From: an uncultured Bacillota bacterium
GTDB taxonomy: Bacteria; Bacillota_I; Bacilli_A; RF39; UBA660
Direction of reading: 5' to 3'
Assembly: GCA_905212975.1 (NCBI GenBank)
Contig: CAJMGO010000004.1
Location: 4,044 to 68,043 of the forward strand
Length of the DNA: 64,000 bases
Under the pieces are notes generated by a model, which had not been told where the DNA came from, searched no databases, and saw only the letters and a list, made by a program, of their open reading frames with translations. Shown here one piece after another: positions 11,109 to 50,699 of the stretch. Each line of letters opens with the position of its first letter. The first letter of the stretch is position 1. The translations under genes and the position numbers were made by a program.

Positions 11109-12125
11109 ATGATAAGAGTTTATGATAAAGCTCATTATAATAGATTAAATGAGTATAATGTAAAAATTAAAACTACATATAAAGATGATAAGTCATTACA
11201 TGTAGTGGATGATAATACAAAAAATGATATTGTTGATGGTATTAGATTAGAAAAAGAATATTATAAAGATAATAAATTAGTTTATAAAATAAAAGATTTT
11301 GATCCAAGAATTAAATATACATTTGTAACTAATAATGAAGATGATAAAATAATTAAATGCCCAAATTGTGGTATGAGTGATATTGGTAAAAATTTTAAAG
11401 AAGGATGTCCTTATTGTGGTACATATTATAATGTTGATTATGAAAATAAAAGTTTAGGCGCTAAATATCATTATGATAGAGCTATTAAAGAAAGCAAATA
11501 TTTATTTATAACTTTTGTTGTTGATTTAATTATGAGTTTTTTAATAATGTTTTGCTATATAAAAATAACAGGAAGAACTTTTAATGTTTATGATATATCA
11601 AAAATATTTATTTATACAATAATACTTGCTGCAGCTCTTTTTTATGTATTTTATATGCTAAATGCGTTTATTATAACTTTACCTGTAAAAATATATAAAG
11701 ATAAAATTAATAAACGTCAAATAGAGTTTTGGAACAGAATGAAAGATATAAATAAAAATACATTTTATAATAATCTTAATTATGAATTACAAAACTATTT
11801 TTATAAAGATATTCCAAATATAATTGATTATGATATTATTGATTATATAGAATTTAAGGAACAATATGATGAAAAGCATAATTTATATATATGTGTTAAA
11901 TTGAAATTGAGAATTGTAAAAATAGAAAATAATAAAATAATGTCTTATGAAGAGGTAAAGAATATTAAATTAGAAAAAAATGATGTAAAAATAGAACAAT
12001 TAAATAGTGGAATTAATGTAATAAAATGTAGAGGTTGTGGAGCATCAATCGATGTAACACAAAATGAATGTGAATATTGCGGTGTAAAGACAAATTATTT
12101 ACAAGAATGGTATCTAATAAAGTAA
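11109..12125 (+). CDS. Double zinc-ribbon membrane protein with Tim44-like-looking C-terminal domain
   Basis: CPNCG..CPYCG ribbon, two TM segments (YLFITFVVDLIMSFLIMFCYI; IFIYTIILAAALFYVFYMLNAFII), C-terminal CRGCGA..CEYCG..EWYLIK. Starts 2 nt after the upstream stop, with no SD. Confidence 0.6.
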   Translation: MIRVYDKAHYNRLNEYNVKIKTTYKDDKSLHVVDDNTKNDIVDGIRLEKEYYKDNKLVYKIKDFDPRIKYTFVTNNEDDKIIKCPNCGMSDIGKNFKEGCPYCGTYYNVDYENKSLGAKYHYDRAIKESKYLFITFVVDLIMSFLIMFCYIKITGRTFNVYDISKIFIYTIILAAALFYVFYMLNAFIITLPVKIYKDKINKRQIEFWNRMKDINKNTFYNNLNYELQNYFYKDIPNIIDYDIIDYIEFKEQYDEKHNLYICVKLKLRIVKIENNKIMSYEEVKNIKLEKNDVKIEQLNSGINVIKCRGCGASIDVTQNECEYCGVKTNYLQEWYLIK

Positions 12126-15201: not shown

Positions 15202-16283
15202 AAAAGGTTGACTATATTTTAGTTTTATCAGTAATAGCGCTTGCTACTTTTGGAGTTATTATGGTATATTCATCATCATATATATGGGCAGAATATAAAT
15301 TTAATGATCCATTTAAATATGTAAAAAATCAAGGCTTATTTTTAATAGTTGGAATAATATTTATGTTTATAATAAGTAAAATAAATTATAATATATATCA
15401 TAAATATTCAAACAAATTACTTATTCTTACAGTAATACTCTTAATACTTGTTTTAATACCTGGTATTGGAAGTGTTAGAAATGGAAGTCGTAGTTGGTTT
15501 GGAATAGGATCTTTTGGAATACAACCAAGTGAGTTGGCTAAAATATCTTTAATTATTTTTACAGCAAAATATTTAACTTTAAATAGAAAAGAGCTTAGAA
15601 GTATAAAAAGTGGAGTATTACCAATATTTTTAGTATGTTTATTTATATTTGGACTTATAATGCTACAACCAGATTTTGGTACAGGAGTAATAATTGTTAT
15701 GACAATAGTTGGAATGTTATTTGTAGGAGGAGTAAATTTTAATTTTTTTATACGTCTTGGAATACTTGGATTATGTGGTATATCAGGTCTTATCATAGCA
15801 GCTCCTTATAGATTAAAAAGAATACTTTCATTTTTAAATCCATGGAGTGATCCACTCGGTAGTGGATTTCAAATAATACAAAGTTTATATGCTATAGGGC
15901 CTGGAGGATTATTTGGATTTGGTTTTTTAAACTCAAGACAAAAGCATTTTTATCTTCCAGAGCCACAAACAGATTTTATATTTTCTATAATCTCAGAAGA
16001 ATTTGGGTTTATGGGTATAGTTATAGTTTCAACACTTTTTTTAATAATTATAATAAGAGGTATAAATATAGCCATAAAATGTAAAGATTTATTTGGTAAA
16101 TTACTATGTTTTGGAATTATATTTGGGCTTTCATTTCAAACACTATTAAATTTAATGGTAGTAACGGGATTAATTCCTGTTACAGGGGTTACTTTACCAT
16201 TTTTGAGCTATGGAGGTTCTAGTTTACTTATAACATTAGCAAGTATGGGAATTGTTTTAAATATAAGTAGGTATAGTAAATAA
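15198..16283 (+). CDS. ftsW: SEDS-family peptidoglycan polymerase FtsW/SpoVE
   Basis: ATG 15198 overlaps the mraY stop (ATGA). ~10 TM. Motifs FGIQPSELAK, QPDFGT, LPEPQTDFIFS, GVTLPFLSYGGSS. The ORF-track start at 15114 lies inside mraY. Confidence 0.85.
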   Translation: MKKVDYILVLSVIALATFGVIMVYSSSYIWAEYKFNDPFKYVKNQGLFLIVGIIFMFIISKINYNIYHKYSNKLLILTVILLILVLIPGIGSVRNGSRSWFGIGSFGIQPSELAKISLIIFTAKYLTLNRKELRSIKSGVLPIFLVCLFIFGLIMLQPDFGTGVIIVMTIVGMLFVGGVNFNFFIRLGILGLCGISGLIIAAPYRLKRILSFLNPWSDPLGSGFQIIQSLYAIGPGGLFGFGFLNSRQKHFYLPEPQTDFIFSIISEEFGFMGIVIVSTLFLIIIIRGINIAIKCKDLFGKLLCFGIIFGLSFQTLLNLMVVTGLIPVTGVTLPFLSYGGSSLLITLASMGIVLNISRYSK

Positions 16284-16303: not shown

Positions 16304-16329
16304 AAAGAATATGAGAAGTATTCTTTTTT
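16304..16329 (+). terminator. Rho-independent terminator after ftsW
   Basis: Stem AAAGAATA / TATTCTTT with a 7-nt loop, then a T-run. Confidence 0.65.
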
Positions 16330-16330
16330 A

Positions 16331-16361
16331 TTGACTCTCCATTTGACTGTAATGATATATT
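16331..16361 (+). promoter_or_regulatory. Candidate MerR-type promoter with 19-nt spacer
   Basis: TTGACT (16331-16336), 19-nt spacer, TATATT (16356-16361). Over-long spacers are typical of MerR-regulated promoters. A second TTGACT and two ACTGTAA copies lie nearby. Confidence 0.35.
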
Positions 16362-16445
16362 TTAACTGTAAAGAGGTGAATAATATTTAAATATAAAATT
16401 AATACGTGATATAATTTAATTAGTTAAAATTTAAAAGGAGGTCAT

Positions 16446-16823
16446 ATGTTATATAAAATAGGTGAGTTTTCAAATATGACAGGACTATCTGTGAAAACTT
16501 TAAGGTATTACGATGATATAGATTTATTTAAACCAATTGATGTAGATTTATTTACTGGGTATAGATATTATAGCACTGATCAAATTTATGATTTAGAGCT
16601 AATCAATGTATTAAAAAGTGTTGGATTTTCATTAGAAGAAATAAAAAATAATTGGGATTCTTTTACAGTAGATTTGTTTAATGAAAAAAAAGATGAATTA
16701 TTAAAAGATATAGAAATAAAACAAAAAGCAATAAAAAAAATAGATGAATTAAAAAGTAATTTAAATAATGGTAAAATTAGAAAAAGAAAGGAAAATACAA
16801 AGAAAGTTAAATCTTTGTATTAA
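16446..16823 (+). CDS. MerR-family transcriptional regulator (short, coiled-coil only)
   Basis: N-terminus YKIGEFSNMTGLSVKTLRYYDDIDLFKP..TGYRYY is the MerR HTH/wing. The C-terminal coiled coil has no obvious effector domain. Confidence 0.85.
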   Translation: MLYKIGEFSNMTGLSVKTLRYYDDIDLFKPIDVDLFTGYRYYSTDQIYDLELINVLKSVGFSLEEIKNNWDSFTVDLFNEKKDELLKDIEIKQKAIKKIDELKSNLNNGKIRKRKENTKKVKSLY

Positions 16824-16832
16824 GGTGATAAA

Positions 16833-17858
16833 ATGAATAATACAAGTTTATTAATAGGAAAAGCAAATAATAAAAATATAAGACACGAAATTAGTTGTAA
16901 TATAAATAATTCTATAACAAATCATGAGAATATATTAGTTTTTAGTGATAATGTATCTTATTATAGTGATTTTTTAAGAAAATTAAATGAAGAAGAATAT
17001 AATACCTATATATTAAATTTAAAAGATAGTTCTCATAGTAATGGATTTAATCCTTTTATTCTTCCATATAAATATTATAAATCTGGTAAAAAAGATAAAG
17101 CAGTTGAAATGTTAGAAAGCATTGGGCATGAGATTTGTAAGGAAAAGAATAGTAATTCAGATCCTTTTTGGGAGAATAGTGCTACATCATATTTTACGAC
17201 TTTAGCGCTTATTCTTTTTAAAGAAGGATCATATGATGAAATAAATCTAGGAAGTATACAAACTATGTTAACTCTTGGTGAAAAAGAATTTGAAGATACT
17301 AATTTAATTAAAAAGTATTTTAGTACCTTGGATATTATGGATCCTATTTATGTATTTGGATCTCAAGTTATATATTCTCCATCTGAAACTAGAGCAAGTA
17401 TTATATCGGTATTAAAACAAAAATTAAATTTATATTGTACAAAAGAAATTTTATTAAATAATTTATGTAATAACGAAATAGATTTATCTATTTTAAATAA
17501 TAAAACAGCAATTTTTATAATAAGTGATACTAAATATAATGGTATTTCTAATATACTAATAAATCAAATATTTAATCAAAATAAAGAATTTTCATATTAT
17601 ATAGATAAAATAGAAAAATTAAATAGTATTACTGAATTAGAAAATATGATTGATAATAATGAAAAAATATTTATTACGTCAAGTTCTAAGCAAGAAATTA
17701 GTGATATATATGGAAATAACTTAATAAATAATATAAATTATGTTAAAGATGTAAAAGAAGAGTATGAAATTTTAGATAAATGTAATATTAATTTACCAGA
17801 TACTAAAATTAATAAACATAATTATTTTAATATAGAGGATTTTATAAAAAAATGTTAA
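16833..17858 (+). CDS. Type IV coupling protein (VirD4/TraG/TcpA)-like protein lacking Walker A/B motifs
   Basis: ..GFNPFILPY..SDPFWENSATSYFTTLALILFKEG..INLGSIQTML..ETRASIISVLKQKLNLY..NKTAIFIISD.. follows the T4CP nucleotide-binding and all-alpha domain order. The Walker A position reads ILVFSDNVSYYSDF, and the LDEF position reads ISDTKY. No N-terminal TM. Confidence 0.5.
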   Translation: MNNTSLLIGKANNKNIRHEISCNINNSITNHENILVFSDNVSYYSDFLRKLNEEEYNTYILNLKDSSHSNGFNPFILPYKYYKSGKKDKAVEMLESIGHEICKEKNSNSDPFWENSATSYFTTLALILFKEGSYDEINLGSIQTMLTLGEKEFEDTNLIKKYFSTLDIMDPIYVFGSQVIYSPSETRASIISVLKQKLNLYCTKEILLNNLCNNEIDLSILNNKTAIFIISDTKYNGISNILINQIFNQNKEFSYYIDKIEKLNSITELENMIDNNEKIFITSSSKQEISDIYGNNLINNINYVKDVKEEYEILDKCNINLPDTKINKHNYFNIEDFIKKC

Positions 17859-17924
17859 AAAATTAAATTTATACTTTAAATCTACATAGAATATATTATT
17901 ATAGTGTAATATTGGGGGTAACAC

Positions 17925-18071
17925 ATGAAAAAAATAGAAAAATTAAAAAAATTAAGGAATGCTTTATTATATTATAAAGCAAGTATTGAACATGATGAAC
18001 AGATTAATAATCAATTTGTTCAATATGAAAAAAGTAAAGAAAAAGTAAAAATTTTAACTTTATTTAAATAA
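17925..18071 (+). CDS. Small hypothetical protein (48 aa), below the ORF-track cutoff
   Basis: GGGGGTAA SD-like element 5 nt upstream of the ATG. MKKIEKLKKLRNALLYYKASIEHDEQINNQFVQYEKSKEKVKILTLFK. Followed directly by a terminator. Confidence 0.3.
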   Translation: MKKIEKLKKLRNALLYYKASIEHDEQINNQFVQYEKSKEKVKILTLFK

Positions 18072-18076
18072 CAAAA

Positions 18077-18102
18077 GAACATTCATTAGAATGTTTTTTT
18101 TT
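18077..18102 (+). terminator. Rho-independent terminator
   Basis: Stem GAACATTC / GAATGTTT with a 4-nt loop, then T9. Confidence 0.6.
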
Positions 18103-18154: not shown

Positions 18155-20242
18155 GTGATTACTTTGAAAAAAGGTAATAAATTTTTAAATTATATTAAAT
18201 CTTTCTTCAAAGATTTTTCAATTAATTTTGTTAAATGTATAAAGAAAATTATTAATTATTCAAAGACTAATATACTATTTTTTACATTTGTTATAACTTC
18301 TGTTATAAATTCAACTATGCTTAGATTATTTACAGTAAAGAATGGGTTAAGTATTAGTCCTGTTTTAGCTGATTTAACAGTAGTTATATTTATTGGATCT
18401 ATTTGCTATTTTTTAAAGCCAAAACACCAATTTAAATACTTGTTTATTATGTCGGTTATATTTTCTATAATTTGTATAATTAATTCTGTTTATTATACAA
18501 ATTATGTTTCTTTTTCATCTGTATCGTTATTAAAGGCTGCAGGTCAATTGGGAGGAGTAAAAGACTCAGTTACTGATTTGTTACAACCAAGAGATTTTTA
18601 TTATCTATTTCAAGTTGTAGCACTCTTATTTGTACATAAGTTTTTAAAACGTAAAGGTTATTATAAAAAGGTTGAAAAAATTGAAGTAGGTAGAATTAGA
18701 TTTTTAAACTCAATTGTTGGAGGACTTATTACTTTAGGTTTCTTTGTATCAACATTAACTAGTACAGATATAAGTAGATTAAGTAAACAATGGAATCCTG
18801 AATATATTGTTATGAAATATGGAATATATACATACCATATAAATGACTTAATTACAAATATTAAATCATCATTAAATCCTTTATTTGGATATGATAAAGC
18901 TGCAGCTCAGTTTAGAGAATTTTATTCACAGGATTCTGAAACTAAAACAAATGAATATACAAATTTATTACAAGGAAAAAATGTTATAGCAATACATGCA
19001 GAAAGTATGCAAAAATGGGTAATAAATACAACCATAAATGGGAAAGAAATAACTCCTAATTTAAATAAATTAGTTCGTGAAGGACTTTATTTTTCTAATT
19101 TTTATGCACAAGAAAGTACAGGAACAAGTAGTGATAGTGAATTTACATATGCATCCTCAATTTTACCAACTTCTAAAGGTACTGTTTTTGTAAATTATTA
19201 TGATAGAAAATATGTAACTTTACAAAATATGTTAAAAGAAAAAGGATATTATACTTTTAGTATGCATGGTAATAATTGTTCATTCTGGAATAGAAAGCTT
19301 GCATATGAAAGTATAGGTTATGAAAAATTTTATTGTTATACTAATGATTATGTAATTGATGATACTGTTGGTCTTGGACTTTCGGATAAATCATTCTTTA
19401 GACAATCAATTGATATATTAAAAAATATTAAACAAGAACATAAAAATTATTATGGAACAATGATTATGTTATCCAACCATACACCATTTAATAAAAATGG
19501 AGAACCTTTTTCAGATTTTGATGTAAGATATCACTTTCAAAAATTAAATGAAGAAACAGGTGAATATGAAGATGCATCTTGGGATTATTTGGAGGGAAGA
19601 AAGTTAGGATATTATATCCAATCAGTTCATTATGCTGATGAAGCACTAGGTGAATTAATTGAATATCTAGAGAATAATAATTTAATGGAAAATACTCTTT
19701 TAGTATTGTATGGTGATCATGATGCTAAAGTGAAAAAATCTGATTATAATTTTTATTATAATTTTAATCCAGAAACTGGTGAAATGTATGATAAAGATGA
19801 TGAAAGATATCATGAAGTTGATTATTATGACTATGAACTAAATAGAAAAGTACCACTTATAATGTGGACAACAGATAGTAAATTGAAAGATAAATTTAAA
19901 GGTGAAGTTACAAAAGTAATGGGAATGTATGATGTTCAACCAACACTTGCTAATATGTTAGGTGTTAAAAGTAAATATGCTTTAGGGCATGATATATTCT
20001 CAATTGATGAAAATGTAGTAGTATTTCCTGATGGTAACTGGTTAACAGATAAAATGTATTATAATAGAAGTAAAGACGAAGGAAAAATGCTAGATATAAA
20101 TGAAACAGTAGGAAGTGATTACATTAATTATTATAATGATTATTCAGATAAATTAATTACTGTTTCAAATTCAATAATAACATATGATTTAATATTAAAA
20201 ACAGAGGAACAAGAAAAAATACTAAATGAAGTTATTCCTTAA
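18155..20242 (+). CDS. ltaS: Lipoteichoic acid synthase family protein (5 TM plus extracellular sulfatase-fold domain)
   Basis: Five N-terminal TM segments, then the sulfatase-type domain (IHAESMQ.., ESTGTSSDSEF, MHGNN, LSNHTPF, LYGDHD). The start could be GTG 18155 or TTG 18164. Confidence 0.85.
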   Translation: MITLKKGNKFLNYIKSFFKDFSINFVKCIKKIINYSKTNILFFTFVITSVINSTMLRLFTVKNGLSISPVLADLTVVIFIGSICYFLKPKHQFKYLFIMSVIFSIICIINSVYYTNYVSFSSVSLLKAAGQLGGVKDSVTDLLQPRDFYYLFQVVALLFVHKFLKRKGYYKKVEKIEVGRIRFLNSIVGGLITLGFFVSTLTSTDISRLSKQWNPEYIVMKYGIYTYHINDLITNIKSSLNPLFGYDKAAAQFREFYSQDSETKTNEYTNLLQGKNVIAIHAESMQKWVINTTINGKEITPNLNKLVREGLYFSNFYAQESTGTSSDSEFTYASSILPTSKGTVFVNYYDRKYVTLQNMLKEKGYYTFSMHGNNCSFWNRKLAYESIGYEKFYCYTNDYVIDDTVGLGLSDKSFFRQSIDILKNIKQEHKNYYGTMIMLSNHTPFNKNGEPFSDFDVRYHFQKLNEETGEYEDASWDYLEGRKLGYYIQSVHYADEALGELIEYLENNNLMENTLLVLYGDHDAKVKKSDYNFYYNFNPETGEMYDKDDERYHEVDYYDYELNRKVPLIMWTTDSKLKDKFKGEVTKVMGMYDVQPTLANMLGVKSKYALGHDIFSIDENVVVFPDGNWLTDKMYYNRSKDEGKMLDINETVGSDYINYYNDYSDKLITVSNSIITYDLILKTEEQEKILNEVIP

Positions 20243-48053: not shown

Positions 48054-50699
48054 ATGGAAAATATAGTAAGAAAAATAGAAAAAATTAATTCAATTAATAA
48101 AAAAAGAATGTATTTATCAAAAAAAATACAACTATTAAATTATAATGATAAAATAAAACTTTTAAATGCCCTAATAGATAGTGCAACTACAAAGTATGAA
48201 AAACTAAGTAATTTGAAAAAACAATATGAAAAGTATTTAAAAACAAATAGAGTATTTAAATCTATTAGTGAAATAGAAAAATTTAAAGAAAACATAGATT
48301 TATATAAAGAAATTAAAGACTATATTGAGGTAGAACATAGTATTAAAATAAAAAATAAAAATTTATTATTTAAAATTAACGATACAGAAATTAAAAATAT
48401 TGATGTTATTCTTAATAGAAATACTTATGTTCTATTTGATAAGTTAAATTATGAATTTGATACAGATAAAAGGATTTTAATATTAATTCAATTAAAACAA
48501 ATATATTCAAAAGCAAATATCAAAATAAAAAAAGAAAATTTTGGATCTGAATATAAGACTTTTGAACGAATATATAGATATATAAATAATTTGATAAAAA
48601 TAGAGTATGAAATAAAGGATAAAATTAAAGCAAGTAAAAAAGAAATAATTGTTAAAAAGAAATATTATTATCCTGTATTGAAACTAAATGAAAAGCAAAT
48701 ATTAACCATTGATTTGAAAATTAATACGAATATATTAGAAACATTAAAAAAACTAGAAAATGAAACAGATATAAATAAAAGAATAAAACTATTAAATTTA
48801 TTGAAAAGTAAATGTATAGATATTTATTCCACACTAGAAAAGAATACTTCAAAAGAAATTTATAAATATGTAAAAGAAATTGAGGAATATTCTAATGAAG
48901 CTATAAAAATAGAACATAAAAAGAGAAAAAATATTTCAAAAAAGAATAGCAATGAAATAAATAATAATTCAAAATTGTCGAAAAAAGAGCTAGAAGTAGT
49001 TGATAAAATTAAAAATAATGATTGTTTAGACAGATATACTTTATTAGAAATTTTAACAGCATATAAGTATTTAGTTATGAATTATGTTAAAGACTATTCA
49101 ATAAGTATTCTTAATGTATCAAAGTATATATCTAACAAAATAATTGATGAAGAAATTAAAGATGATAAAGATATTGTTATGATAAATTCAATAAAAGATA
49201 CAATTAGATATAGATTACTTTCGTTAAATAAAAATGATGATAATGAATTGGAACGTTCTATATTAAAGGAATTGAGAATTGTATTTGATTTTATTTGTAA
49301 AAATTATAAAGAAGATACAAAAAGTACAGAACATGATTATAGATGTGATGTCATAAAATACTATTTAAAAGATGAAAATGGATATCCATATGTAAAAAAA
49401 ATAATTAATTATATGCCAGAAATAGTAAATGTTAGAGTAAAAGAACATAGTAATGAACATATAATTATAAATATATTAAAGGAATATATCTATAATTATA
49501 AAGAAATGTTAAAAGATAAAAATGGTTGTTTTATAAATCCAGATTATTTAAAACAAGTATATTTATTATTCATGAACAATAGTAATTTGAAGTTGAATTT
49601 TGAAGATAAAGTAACAATTGACTATATATTAGATGATTTTATACTTTATCTAGATAAAGAAATATATAAAGAAGATAGAAAAACCTTAGCAAAAAAAGAA
49701 GTAAGAAAATTAAAAAGTCAATATTTATATTATGAAAAGAAATTAAAATTTAGAAAAGTTGATGAAAGACAATTAAGATGGCAAACTGAGTTATTATCAA
49801 ATAATAGAACACATTGTTTGAAAAAAGACAATAGAGTAAATGTATTAGATGACTGTATCACATTAAATGGAATTAATGCTTATTCATTATCTCAAGATGG
49901 TGATAAGAGAAAACTTAAAATACATGTAATAGATACAAGTAAAATTGTCGCACCATATACATCAGTGGATAGTAAAATTTATAACTGCATGATTGAACAT
50001 GAAAAAATTAGTGAAAATATAAAAAGAAAATTAGCATTAAAATATAATGAAGAAAATCCTACAATTACATATGAATTTAATATTGAAAAAGGTAATTGTA
50101 TTACAGATTTTAAGATTTATAAAAGTAAAATCTTCATAGATGAGGAAAATAATACTTTATTGAAAAACTTAAGTCAATTATCCAAAAAAATTCTAGCTTC
50201 TAAGAATATTAAAGATTTCGAAAGCTATACAATTGATGAATCTATTGAAATATTACTTAATGAAGAATTTATAAATTATATTGATGAAAATAAACTACCA
50301 TTTATTTATTGTGGAAAAGAATATATAAATGATTATATAAATCATATGAATAATTTAAGTAATATATTTAATAGGTTGAATGTAATTGATTTTAAGAAGT
50401 TATACACTATTATTAGTAATAATGTAGGTGAATATAATTATTCTACAAAAGCATTCGAAGTTGATGGAACATATAATTTAAATTTAATAAATGACATTAA
50501 TTATTTATTTATTTTTAATCAACGATTAATTACAGATATTATTTTTAATAACCAAAAGCTTAAAGATAAATCAAAATATTTAAAAGAATGTGAAAAATTA
50601 GAGCATGAGTTAAATCTAAGTATTAATCATATTAAGCCAGAAGATATAGTATTTAAAAATAATGCTAAAAGGAATAAATTAAAACAATTTAATTTGTGA
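48054..50699 (+). CDS. Large Lys/Asn-rich hypothetical protein (881 aa) with possible degenerate RNB-like C-terminal domain
   Basis: 12 nt after dnaI. No TM or NTP-binding motif. Residues ~594-834 follow RNase II/R (RNB) motif order with catalytic residues replaced (see findings). Confidence 0.6.
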   Translation: MENIVRKIEKINSINKKRMYLSKKIQLLNYNDKIKLLNALIDSATTKYEKLSNLKKQYEKYLKTNRVFKSISEIEKFKENIDLYKEIKDYIEVEHSIKIKNKNLLFKINDTEIKNIDVILNRNTYVLFDKLNYEFDTDKRILILIQLKQIYSKANIKIKKENFGSEYKTFERIYRYINNLIKIEYEIKDKIKASKKEIIVKKKYYYPVLKLNEKQILTIDLKINTNILETLKKLENETDINKRIKLLNLLKSKCIDIYSTLEKNTSKEIYKYVKEIEEYSNEAIKIEHKKRKNISKKNSNEINNNSKLSKKELEVVDKIKNNDCLDRYTLLEILTAYKYLVMNYVKDYSISILNVSKYISNKIIDEEIKDDKDIVMINSIKDTIRYRLLSLNKNDDNELERSILKELRIVFDFICKNYKEDTKSTEHDYRCDVIKYYLKDENGYPYVKKIINYMPEIVNVRVKEHSNEHIIINILKEYIYNYKEMLKDKNGCFINPDYLKQVYLLFMNNSNLKLNFEDKVTIDYILDDFILYLDKEIYKEDRKTLAKKEVRKLKSQYLYYEKKLKFRKVDERQLRWQTELLSNNRTHCLKKDNRVNVLDDCITLNGINAYSLSQDGDKRKLKIHVIDTSKIVAPYTSVDSKIYNCMIEHEKISENIKRKLALKYNEENPTITYEFNIEKGNCITDFKIYKSKIFIDEENNTLLKNLSQLSKKILASKNIKDFESYTIDESIEILLNEEFINYIDENKLPFIYCGKEYINDYINHMNNLSNIFNRLNVIDFKKLYTIISNNVGEYNYSTKAFEVDGTYNLNLINDINYLFIFNQRLITDIIFNNQKLKDKSKYLKECEKLEHELNLSINHIKPEDIVFKNNAKRNKLKQFNL

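Follow-up and report, generated by a model that had tools for sequence, protein, structure and literature searches.

The accepted view of coupling proteins is that they serve type IV secretion exclusively, as substrate receptors driven by ATP. The 64-kb stretch of DNA analysed here (the window) carries a gene of this family immediately behind a MerR regulator gene, between ftsW and ltaS, in what is otherwise core chromosome with ftsW, ltaS and ftsK as neighbours, and the question is what a type IV coupling protein (T4CP) homologue does there. The first-pass annotation had read it either as the relic of an integrative conjugative element (ICE) or as an exapted, ATPase-dead T4CP fold; both halves of that reading find support, one in relatives linked to type IV secretion system (T4SS) genes, the other in dead motifs and selection. 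Positions 16331-18100 are best read as an orphan cassette of regulation or immunity that stems from a conjugative element and is under selection; we give roughly even chances to the fuller model, in which its T4CP-like product (T4CPL) is kept as a binding protein that serves MerR. No description of a merR gene paired with a T4CP-like gene was found in the literature. The cassette is laid out as one operon, with a MerR-type promoter followed by merR, t4cpL and the gene of a 48-aa basic peptide:

16305-16329, forward strand: probable terminator after ftsW, an AT-rich hairpin (AAGAATA-N7-TATTCTT) with a T-run, read from sequence
16331-16361, forward strand: MerR-type promoter/operator, TTGACT (16331-16336), 19-nt spacer, TATATT (16356-16361)
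16386-16415, forward strand: second sigma-70-like site of uncertain status, TTTAAA, 18 nt, TATAAT with extended TG, within an 85-nt leader
16446-16823, forward strand: merR, a minimal MerR protein of 125 aa (PF13411, E 1e-17)
16833-17858, forward strand: t4cpL, a 341-aa T4CP paralogue lacking transmembrane (TM) segments and made up of a nucleotide-binding and an all-alpha domain
17925-18071, forward strand: gene of the 48-aa basic peptide MKKIEKLKKLRNALLYYKASIEHDEQINNQFVQYEKSKEKVKILTLFK, third in the cassette and called as a gene in L005-L008
18078-18100, forward strand: probable terminator of the cassette, a hairpin (AACATTC-ATTA-GAATGTT) with a T-run upstream of ltaS, found by sequence inspection

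The identity of T4CPL rests on several concordant lines. The protein gives a significant match to the PF02534 profile and has the T4CP fold with its all-alpha domain; it also follows the motif order of VirD4, TrwB, Cagβ and DotL (DPKGE-like, NPL.LPY, DPFW..SA, ETRGSI, TAIFI, LD.F, YG, YP..F). The nearest curated model is NCBIfam NF045973 ('VirD4-like, CD1115 family'), matched over profile positions 64-280 of 442 with 74.5 bits, under the cutoff of 250. Sequence searches of the PDB, with T4CPL alone or with a 28-sequence profile, gave chance matches only, so that a fold search was needed; its top structural match was 8dol, the Cagβ complex, an entry whose title refers to regulation of the Cagβ ATPase by CagZ. 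PADLOC and PHROGs returned no match for T4CPL. Profile, fold and alignment with TM-bearing T4CPs agree, which bears out the initial call of a coupling-protein homologue and speaks against the low-complexity alternative raised with it; a composition artefact was rejected on this ground.

The same alignment with TM-bearing T4CPs fixed the register of the motifs. T4CPL starts 8 residues ahead of the P-loop position and therefore has no N-terminal TM anchor, as had been noted before, whereas related T4CPs carry ~140 additional N-terminal residues with hydrophobic segments. Its Walker A site, residues 9-16, reads GKANNKNI where T4CPs have GATGSGKT; it departs from the GxxxxGK[ST] pattern, the P-loop Lys and Thr being gone. 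Of 118 relatives, 70 have an intact Walker A motif, whereas it is dead throughout the clade to which the window copy belongs. The Walker B site lies at 254-260 (YYIDKIE vs FLLDEFA in T4CP) and keeps Asp258, as do 112 of the 118 family members, with Lys259 in place of Glu; the catalytic Glu occurs in none of the 118, which have N, G, K, D or S instead. The first-pass annotation was thus right about the loss of Walker A and of the Walker B Glu and wrong about the placement of both sites and about a total loss of the latter. The two segments it had assigned were rejected: ILVFSDNVSYY as Walker A, since it pairs with the T4CP motif MIITDPKGEIY, and AIFIISDTKY as Walker B, its T4CP counterpart being TAVFIIVQDEK. 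T4CPL further lacks the residues of the Arg-finger/'IIQN' region and a segment of ~30 aa after the YG motif. The TraG-D_C region is missing as well. The earlier statement that the frame ends before the C-terminal T4CP motifs is inexact, however: it does not simply end early, since the C-terminal YP...YFN.E.F is kept, as in related full-length T4CPs. Unlike T4CPs, then, which possess a TM anchor, the catalytic Glu and the Arg-finger region, T4CPL has none of the three, and the window copy is also without GK[ST]. With these losses T4CPL would be unable to act as a DNA-translocation motor.

The regulator is equally reduced. Its AlphaFold2 model comprises a winged helix-turn-helix (HTH; residues 1-70), a coiled-coil helix (75-104) and a disordered tail, with helices at 5-12, 16-24, 45-59, 63-69 and a long one at 75-104, that is, the N-terminal winged HTH and dimerising coiled-coil helix by which the MerR fold is recognized. 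The best Foldseek matches were BmrR (37-42% identity) and MtaN, with E 4e-8 to 5e-6 for these two, and NmlR; the sensor-less members NmlR and MtaN resemble this protein; the PADLOC mad1 model also matches its HTH. The chain stops 21 residues past the coiled coil, and an effector-binding C-terminal region, whether metal-binding Cys or a drug-binding domain, is absent from the sequence. A metal-sensing MerR was rejected, the protein containing neither Cys nor His. What closes the disordered tail is a conserved K-x-K-S-L-Y/F (alignments A3, A6).

The promoter has the 19-20 nt spacer with dyad that is typical of MerR-family promoters, and a single copy of its extended pattern lies in the 64 kb, where chance would give 0.01. 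In the window the spacer holds a degenerate dyad, CATTTGACTG, the family consensus being the palindrome CAGTTAACTG and the operator of L028 a perfect 16-bp dyad, CTCTAGTTAACTAGAG; in the window operator only 3 of 5 positions per half-site match in the degraded centre, so that regulation here may be weaker. The 31-nt operator is kept upstream of the merR-t4cpL module in ~20 loci whose proteins are only 40-50% identical, and also precedes an ABC exporter (L010, L031), a peptide gene (L012) and a VirB6-like gene (L021). Operon structure and operator conservation suggest that MerR controls the cassette, and MerR would probably regulate its own gene in this way. The second sigma-70-like site has the top consensus score in the region, the number of such matches not exceeding shuffle expectation; it lies in a leader that the window shares with L012.

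Several claims made earlier about the surroundings were also sustained: the TTGACT/TATATT promoter and the short MerR gene behind it are present as described, the 341-aa frame begins 9 nt past the merR stop, and tblastn found no homologue of VirB4, VirB6 or a MobV relaxase in the 64 kb, where relaxase, VirB4 and other conjugation genes had been reported missing. The module is flanked by neither T4SS genes, relaxase nor integrase, and an intact ICE in the window was rejected. The remaining large frames tested are housekeeping genes, and the sole recombinase gene in the vicinity, of XerC/D type, follows ftsK. The hairpin at 16305-16329 probably insulates the cassette from the dcw genes; the terminator scan missed it because its stem has a single G-C pair and missed the one at 18078-18100 because of low G+C content. 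The G+C fraction of the cassette is 0.15-0.22 against 0.24-0.32 in its flanks, in a genome of ~25% G+C.

The pair and its operator recur in ~20 unrelated chromosomal contexts, for which genomes were scanned with the MerR alignment; the MerR itself occurs on 364 contigs. In every context examined merR and t4cpL are adjacent and the flanks non-homologous, in keeping with the tight coupling proposed at first, and a TM-less relative of 546 aa also has a MerR gene in front. The identities of MerR and T4CPL co-vary (r = 0.86 over 18 loci, reached by 0 of 2000 permutations), and pair, operator and MerR tail motif are still present at ~37% identity. Full-length T4CPL homologues form >150 clusters at 90% identity with an intact frame and a length of 330-355 aa; the library search yielded 514 representatives at E ≤ 1e-30, a count that includes bona fide T4CPs. 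The C-terminus of longer TM-less relatives bears variable domains, namely SUKH-1, NUDIX or DUF4272.

Third in the cassette, the peptide gene has a homologue in L012 that is 66% identical and has its own operator in front. Related peptides, identified by reading the loci, adjoin merR or t4cpL in nine cases (L003, L010, L011, L013, L014, L017, L021, L023, L025); a homologue search with the peptide returned its own cluster only, because short frames are seldom called. The C-terminal tail of MerR resembles the C-terminus of the peptide, a short resemblance that could be compositional, because both are Lys-rich and the genome is AT-rich. In six loci (L002, L009, L018, L020, L022, L024) the operon also holds a gene for a Cys-rich, membrane-anchored protein of ~92 aa, which is absent from the window.

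The ancestry of the cassette is disclosed by relatives at conjugative elements. In L021, L025 and L031 the operator, MerR and small peptide stand at the head of Firmicute-type T4SS clusters, with VirB6-, VirB3- and VirB4-like genes followed by a cell-wall hydrolase. These modules consist of merR and peptide and function without an adjacent T4CPL, so that this MerR does not depend on T4CPL in every case. The T4CP-like gene of L017, by contrast, lies inside a T4SS cluster, and in L009 a Mob_Pre relaxase gene follows 1 kb downstream. L093, a T4SS cluster in which the genes follow the same order, has its own TM T4CP of 738 aa, 31% identical to the window protein; since such a cluster owns a full-length, membrane-anchored T4CP, T4CPL is a non-motor paralogue. 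The cassette thus has ICE ancestry and the window copy is an orphan, the far commoner condition, with ICE-linked copies at 1 in ~20 loci; T4CPs go with relaxase and T4SS genes, whereas T4CPL is usually beside neither.

Purifying selection acts on all three genes. Between the window and L012, two orthologues without a P-loop, dN/dS is 0.15 for merR, 0.25 for t4cpL and 0.31 for the peptide (dS ~0.33). Together with the >150 intact clusters and the constant adjacency, the value for t4cpL supports the earlier argument against simple decay. Catalytic residues are lost and the protein is nevertheless kept by selection, and a motor fold therefore seems to have found a new use in regulation or immunity.

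These observations can be assembled into a working model. The source is a family of Firmicute-type conjugative elements of uncultured, very AT-rich gut Bacilli. A BmrR/MtaN-like MerR dimer would sit on the spacer dyad of the promoter from which it is itself expressed and from there control the three-gene operon. T4CPL is a paralogue of the coupling ATPase that the element anchors in the membrane. It retains the nucleotide-binding fold and the all-alpha domain for substrate binding, has lost the membrane anchor, catalytic Glu, Arg-finger region and, in the lineage of the window, the P-loop, and selection would maintain it for its binding function. Because MerR has no effector domain, T4CPL is most likely the trans-acting partner that gives it its missing input; the conserved disordered tail of MerR and the similar C-terminus of the peptide are candidate docking ligands, and physical contact of T4CPL with MerR or with the peptide may be envisaged. 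The output would lie in controlling related elements or in protecting against them and, in some genomes, in an ABC exporter. A more specific version, put forward tentatively, supposes a MerR regulator split in two, with T4CPL as the sensor subunit that can detach: its all-alpha domain, helped in most members by a non-hydrolysing nucleotide site, would read a signal (peptide, relaxosome or incoming ssDNA) and pass it through the MerR tail to switch the regulon, which would include conjugation genes where the module belongs to an element, and its own or exporter genes where it is an orphan on the chromosome.

Known systems provide partial parallels. BmrR and Mta (MtaN), multidrug-responsive activators of Bacillus subtilis, share 37-42% identity with MerR over the DNA-binding and coiled-coil region, a promoter of 19-nt spacer whose dyad begins inside the -35 element (TTGACTCTCC...) and, in some genomes, an efflux ABC exporter under a cassette-type operator. 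They possess a C-terminal ligand-binding domain (GyrI-like or TipAS-like) where the cassette MerR has a disordered tail of ~15 residues ending in KxKSL[YF], and it is the latter that is paired with a T4CP-like gene. Sensor-less MerRs of the MtaN type can act as constitutive activators, and the cassette MerR may therefore need no partner. TnrA and GlnR are MerR-family regulators governed by a protein partner, glutamine synthetase, via their C-terminal tail. The likeness, by analogy only, is that of a small MerR without ligand domain whose short tail is a proposed dock for a large oligomeric enzyme-fold protein; the partner proteins are unrelated, and the sites of TnrA/GlnR do not belong to activator promoters with a 19-nt spacer. 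In plasmid pIP501 the membrane protein TraI recruits the soluble T4CP TraJ, and two-hybrid assays show binding of the repressor TraN, which has a MerR fold, to both TraJ and TraE (PMC4981023). Features in common are a TM-less T4CP encoded beside a small membrane protein, comparable to the ~92-aa one of many family loci, and a small DNA-binding protein of MerR fold, which in pIP501 governs transfer and is reported to bind the T4CP. TraJ, however, binds and hydrolyses ATP and is the only T4CP of its element, whereas the element related to T4CPL has a separate full T4CP; TraN has a monomeric internal-dimer fold and the cassette MerR is of the coiled-coil type; and the window cassette has no T4SS partner.

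Three other explanations have to be weighed. In one, MerR merely drives expression, while the dead, soluble T4CPL poisons or titrates the coupling protein, relaxosome or incoming DNA of related conjugative elements or other invaders and the chromosomal MerR occupies the identical operators of an arriving element, the cassette being an anti-ICE or defence module kept by the host. Near-identical operators in orphan and ICE copies, ~31% identity of T4CPL to the cytoplasmic domain of an ICE T4CP, the excess of orphans, the mad1 match of the MerR HTH and the SUKH-1, NUDIX or DUF4272 extensions are all consistent with it, variable C-terminal domains being a pattern of conflict systems. The surroundings are nevertheless core genes rather than a defence island, T4CPL has no PADLOC match, and dominant-negative action usually requires an oligomer interface, on which such a role would depend; we consider this reading, as effector and as host module alike, rather unlikely.

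Could T4CPL instead still work in transfer, as the soluble half of a split T4CP that a small protein recruits to the membrane and that serves a T4SS elsewhere in the genome, for instance in mobilising chromosomal or IME DNA? The membrane-anchored protein of the six operons, the position of T4CPL in L017, the relaxase gene in L009 and the split T4CP of pIP501 (PMC4981023) would fit. A same-type T4SS cluster owns a complete TM T4CP, however; anchor gene, relaxase and T4SS genes are all absent from the window; the catalytic Glu is missing in 118 of 118 members and the Arg-finger region lost; and the window copy lacks the P-loop Lys and Thr, where a change of the Walker A lysine in TrwB abolishes transfer (PMC7431656). 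This makes a working subunit improbable. Least credible of all is a neutral relic without present function, left over from a conjugative element that has otherwise been deleted in the course of decay. ICE ancestry, the lost P-loop and degraded dyad of the window clade, a cassette G+C below that of the flanks and the seeming loss of the ancestral operon's upstream gene, leaving the 85-nt leader, could all be read in this way. Such decay is hard to reconcile with the dN/dS of 0.15-0.31 across all three genes of P-loop-less orthologues, with frames intact and lengths steady in >150 clusters, or with the survival of pair, operator and tail motif to ~37% identity.

As a family without catalytic residues or anchor, located beside a sensor-less MerR and an unusually conserved operator, T4CPL represents a second evolutionary fate of the T4CP fold, and the cassette offers a defined, testable circuit for switching on or excluding conjugative elements of uncultured gut Bacilli. 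Were the sensor-subunit version true, T4CPL would be the first example of a motor protein of the T4SS that has become a factor of transcription control or ICE immunity, conserved across a whole lineage of these bacteria. Automatic annotation as 'type IV secretory system conjugative DNA transfer family protein' could lead to its being miscounted as evidence of mobile elements in metagenome-assembled genomes; the identical window protein occurs on 21 contigs from several samples.

The cassette lies between ftsW and ltaS and is laid out as follows.

Window coordinates of the cassette and its neighbours
ends at 16283: ftsW, upstream neighbour
16305-16329: AT-rich hairpin and T-run, 3' of ftsW
16331-16361: promoter, TTGACT, 19-nt spacer, TATATT
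85 nt between this MerR-type promoter and merR: leader
16446-16823: merR, 125-aa ORF
16833-17858: t4cpL, 341-aa ORF, 9 nt past merR
17925-18071: 48-aa ORF for a small peptide, 66 nt past t4cpL
18078-18100: second hairpin and T-run, closing the unit
starts at 18155: ltaS, downstream neighbour

The promoter and the 9-nt spacing of the two ORFs are as the first-pass annotation described them, and the 64 kb hold a single occurrence of the extended promoter pattern, against 0.01 expected by chance. The cassette is a single promoter-to-terminator unit, with a G+C content (0.15-0.22) lower than that of its flanks (0.24-0.32). A second promoter-like site in the leader (16386-16415; TTTAAA, 18 nt, TGaTATAAT with an extended -10) could provide MerR-independent basal expression.

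The regulator, a true member of the MerR family, falls in the BmrR/Mta branch but has no effector domain. It matches PF13411 with an E value of 1e-17, and its AF2 model comprises a winged HTH, a long helix spanning residues 75-104 and, at 112-125, a disordered tail (pLDDT ~52). Its closest structural neighbours are BmrR (37-42% identity over ~105 residues), MtaN, a Bacillus cereus MerR and NmlR, the last described as 'lacking the sensor domain'. The protein contains no Cys and no His and therefore no metal site. Over 34-58 relatives there is almost no variation in the DNA-reading region, and past a variable linker the extreme C-terminus keeps the pattern K-x-K-S-L-Y/F. In alignments A3 and A5 this terminus (KKVKSLY, 16808-16820; family KxKSL[YF]) resembles that of the small peptide (KVKILTLFK, 18042-18068; family KxLxL), a likeness that may reflect mimicry of one docking motif or a Lys-rich composition. 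At one related locus (L018:7950-8789) the merR ORF has 279 codons, ~150 residues more than usual on the C-terminal side, and may encode a MerR with an added domain or a mis-called fusion.

The homology of the t4cpL product, T4CPL, to type IV coupling proteins (T4CPs), as first proposed, is real. Against PF02534 it scores 38 bits (E 1.1e-9; cutoff 20.1). For the nearest curated family, represented by the NCBIfam CD1115 VirD4-like model, the E value is 7e-21, but the 74 bits obtained fall below the cutoff of 250. The AF2 model, built with 118 homologues, is confident (pLDDT 92.6, pTM 0.92). Profile matches and model together thus exclude low-complexity composition as the source of the similarity. 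Searching the PDB by sequence returned nothing, and the top structural match is 8dol, a Cagβ complex whose title refers to ATPase regulation by CagZ.

Of 1.84 billion representative proteins searched with a profile, 4939 matched at E ≤ 1e-3 and, of these, 514 reached E ≤ 1e-30. The matches form a continuum of three kinds: ~340-aa proteins resembling T4CPL; 400-640-aa proteins without transmembrane (TM) segments and with extra C-terminal domains; and 650-940-aa proteins matching from about residue 145, after a hydrophobic N-terminal region, which are ordinary membrane-anchored T4CPs. Among P0120 (501 aa), P0261 (578 aa), P0338 (873 aa) and P0093 (255 aa), the longer TM-less relatives carry C-terminal SUKH-1 (SMI1_KNR4), NUDIX or DUF4272 domains, and a protein from a short contig, perhaps a chimera, has a T4CPL fragment fused to an OmpR-type Trans_reg_C domain. 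Conflict systems typically show such variability in their C-terminal domains. Motif positions were set by one alignment of all three kinds.

Motif register (T4CP; family consensus; window)
Walker A: GATGSGKT; GKINTGKT; GKANNKNI, residues 9-16, dead
ITDPKGEIY motif: family ILDNKEEYY; window VFSDNVSYY, formerly taken for the Walker A site
TAVFIIVQDEK motif: family TAIFIIG; window TAIFIISDTK, formerly taken for Walker B
Walker B: FLLDEFANM; FILDNFD; YYIDKIE, residues 254-260, Asp kept, Glu lost

Both Walker motifs had therefore been misplaced. The protein had been called motif-dead, which is correct for Walker A and the catalytic Glu but not for the retained Walker B Asp. It had also been said to end before the C-terminal T4CP motifs; ~30 residues after the YG motif are indeed missing relative to full-length T4CPs, but the YP...YFN.E.F motif is common to both. 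Of the 118 family members, 70 have a canonical Walker A; it is GEVNTYKT in ~30 and destroyed or deleted in ~18, including the window clade. The Walker B Asp persists in 112/118, and the catalytic position is never Glu (N 65, G 30, K 6, D 6, S 5, gap 6). The 'ARSR' Arg-finger region and 'IIQN' strand residues are also replaced. Since the Glu is never present and the Arg-finger region is replaced, the family as a whole looks hydrolysis-deficient, and the window protein has lost its phosphate-binding loop as well. TrwB with an altered Walker A lysine shows neither ATPase activity nor transfer (PMC7431656). T4CPL shares the T4CP fold but fails four defining features, namely Walker A, the catalytic Glu, linkage to a type IV secretion system (T4SS) and the membrane anchor, whose absence had been recognized from the start.

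Full-length homologues of T4CPL (36-99% identity, 330-355 aa) fall into more than 150 clusters, drawn from MAGs of uncultured Bacillota, Bacilli and 'Tenericutes'. Over ~25 contexts sampled, merR adjoins t4cpL in every locus read (window/L005-8, L001-L003, L009-L015, L017-L020, L022-L024, L028, L030), in inverted order in L028 and L030, with flanks unrelated to each other and mostly housekeeping. A MerR also precedes a 546-aa TM-less relative, and MerR and T4CPL pairwise identities co-vary (r = 0.86, reached by 0/2000 permutations). The linkage is obligatory; it is not described in the literature searched.

The 31-nt promoter/operator TTGACTCTCCAGTTAACTGTAATGTTATACT stands at the head of the operon everywhere and is nearly base-for-base conserved among genomes with only 40-50% protein identity; some loci have perfect dyads (L028 CTCTAGTTAACTAGAG; L030 CCTCCAGT..ACTGGAGG). 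The promoter sequence is conserved together with the MerR recognition region. In most loci read the operon also carries an accessory gene of one of two kinds (neither in L001 and L028), and the two do not co-occur in these loci.

Accessory and associated genes
window, L003, L010-L014, L017, L023: small basic peptide, 38-67 aa, C-terminal K-x-L-x-L
L002:7274-7549, L009:5247-5528, L018:7649-7936, L020:7029-7304, L022:7697-7987, L024:7717-7992 (also in L019): Cys-rich (CxxC...C) ~92-aa protein with C-terminal TM helix, operon gene 1, between operator and merR
L010:7083-8885, L012:2778-4532, L031:2812-4632, L030:4595-6328: ABC half-transporter exporter (ABC_membrane + ABC_tran, ~580 aa), after or beside the cassette

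The window has no Cys-rich gene; there and in L012 only an RBS-like remnant, AAAGAGGTGA, is kept in the 85-110-nt leader. The operator recurs 5' of a small-peptide gene (L012), a VirB6-like gene (L021) and the exporter genes of L010 and L031, which each have their own copy, suggesting that in some genomes an efflux/export pump belongs to the regulon, much as bmr is controlled by BmrR.

The proposed ancestry in an integrative conjugative element (ICE) is borne out by synteny. At L021, L025 and L031, genes for three proteins, VirB6/TrbL-like (membrane), VirB3-like and VirB4-like (an ATPase; AAA_10, TraG P-loop), lie behind the same operator, MerR and peptide. In L025, where the sequence is long enough, they lead on to a SpoIID/amidase-type cell-wall hydrolase gene. 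These clusters are Firmicute-type T4SSs. In L017 the merR-t4cpL-peptide trio lies directly 5' of such a cluster, and in L093 the last gene of a cluster with matching gene order encodes a complete T4CP of 738 aa (TM domain, Walker A, Walker B DE, TraG-D_C), 31% identical to the window T4CPL over the T4CP cytoplasmic domain. Since this cluster carries its own complete T4CP, T4CPL is a paralogue of the elements' motor and not the motor itself, and a role as a functional split T4CP is one of the less likely readings. A 505-aa Mob_Pre (MobV) relaxase gene, 1 kb 3' of merR-t4cpL at L009:8026-9543, is the sole relaxase seen near an orphan cassette, that is, a copy without surrounding T4SS genes.

The window copy is such an orphan, under purifying selection. 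As reported earlier, the window lacks conjugation genes: tblastn detected no VirB4, VirB6 or MobV relaxase homologue, and the other large ORFs tested were PBPs, MraY, FtsW/RodA, LtaS, FtsK, XerC/D, P-type ATPase, MacB, histidine kinase, DnaB_2, ThrRS and CysRS. The nearest relative, L012 (T4CPL identity 84%, P-loop also missing), has its cassette in a different context, where the exporter has been inserted behind t4cpL and ahead of the peptide gene. For this single orthologue pair, in a very AT-rich genome and at dS ~0.33, NG86 dN/dS is 0.15 (merR), 0.25 (t4cpL, ranging from 0.18 to 0.48 over its length) and 0.31 (peptide). These values for all three genes speak against a decaying remnant, in line with the initial argument against simple decay, and a neutral relic is likewise one of the less likely readings. 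The identical T4CPL recurs on 21 contigs, which come from several metagenomes, and the four copies compared show 0-2 nucleotide differences.

The cassette pairs a sensor-less MerR with a T4CP paralogue lacking catalytic residues. We favour T4CPL as the source of the input missing from MerR, because two precedents exist: Cagβ-CagZ (8dol) and the pIP501 system. In the latter, TraI recruits TraJ, a soluble T4CP, and two-hybrid assays show that TraN, a repressor with a MerR fold, interacts with TraJ and TraE, an interaction proposed by the authors to relieve repression (PMC4981023). MerR would autoregulate the operon through the 19-nt spacer promoter, and T4CPL would act by binding rather than ATP-driven translocation, possibly contacting the conserved disordered MerR tail; the peptide, whose C-terminus is similar, would compete or act as a co-ligand, and the Cys-rich protein could be a membrane anchor or partner of T4CPL, as TraI is for TraJ. 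In the main rival reading T4CPL is itself the output and would work as a decoy or dominant-negative factor, directed at related elements or at other DNA that enters the cell. This is plausible because operators are near-identical between orphan and ICE copies, orphans are in excess, and SUKH-1, NUDIX and DUF4272 domains are fused to the longer relatives.

Elsewhere in the window, 11109-12125, just 5' of the dcw-cluster PBP gene, encodes a 338-aa protein whose TM helices are flanked by two zinc-ribbon motifs (CxxC...CxxC) and for which no Pfam match is recorded, and an 881-aa ORF (48054-50699) amid housekeeping genes has no Pfam match at E ≤ 1e-5. Compared with the window, two loci of the same species differ by three extra ORFs, including a transpeptidase fragment, 5' of the PBP gene (L006:3468-5018) and by a methyltransferase gene inserted 3' of ltaS (L007:13951-14754); despite these strain-level differences the cassette is unchanged in both.
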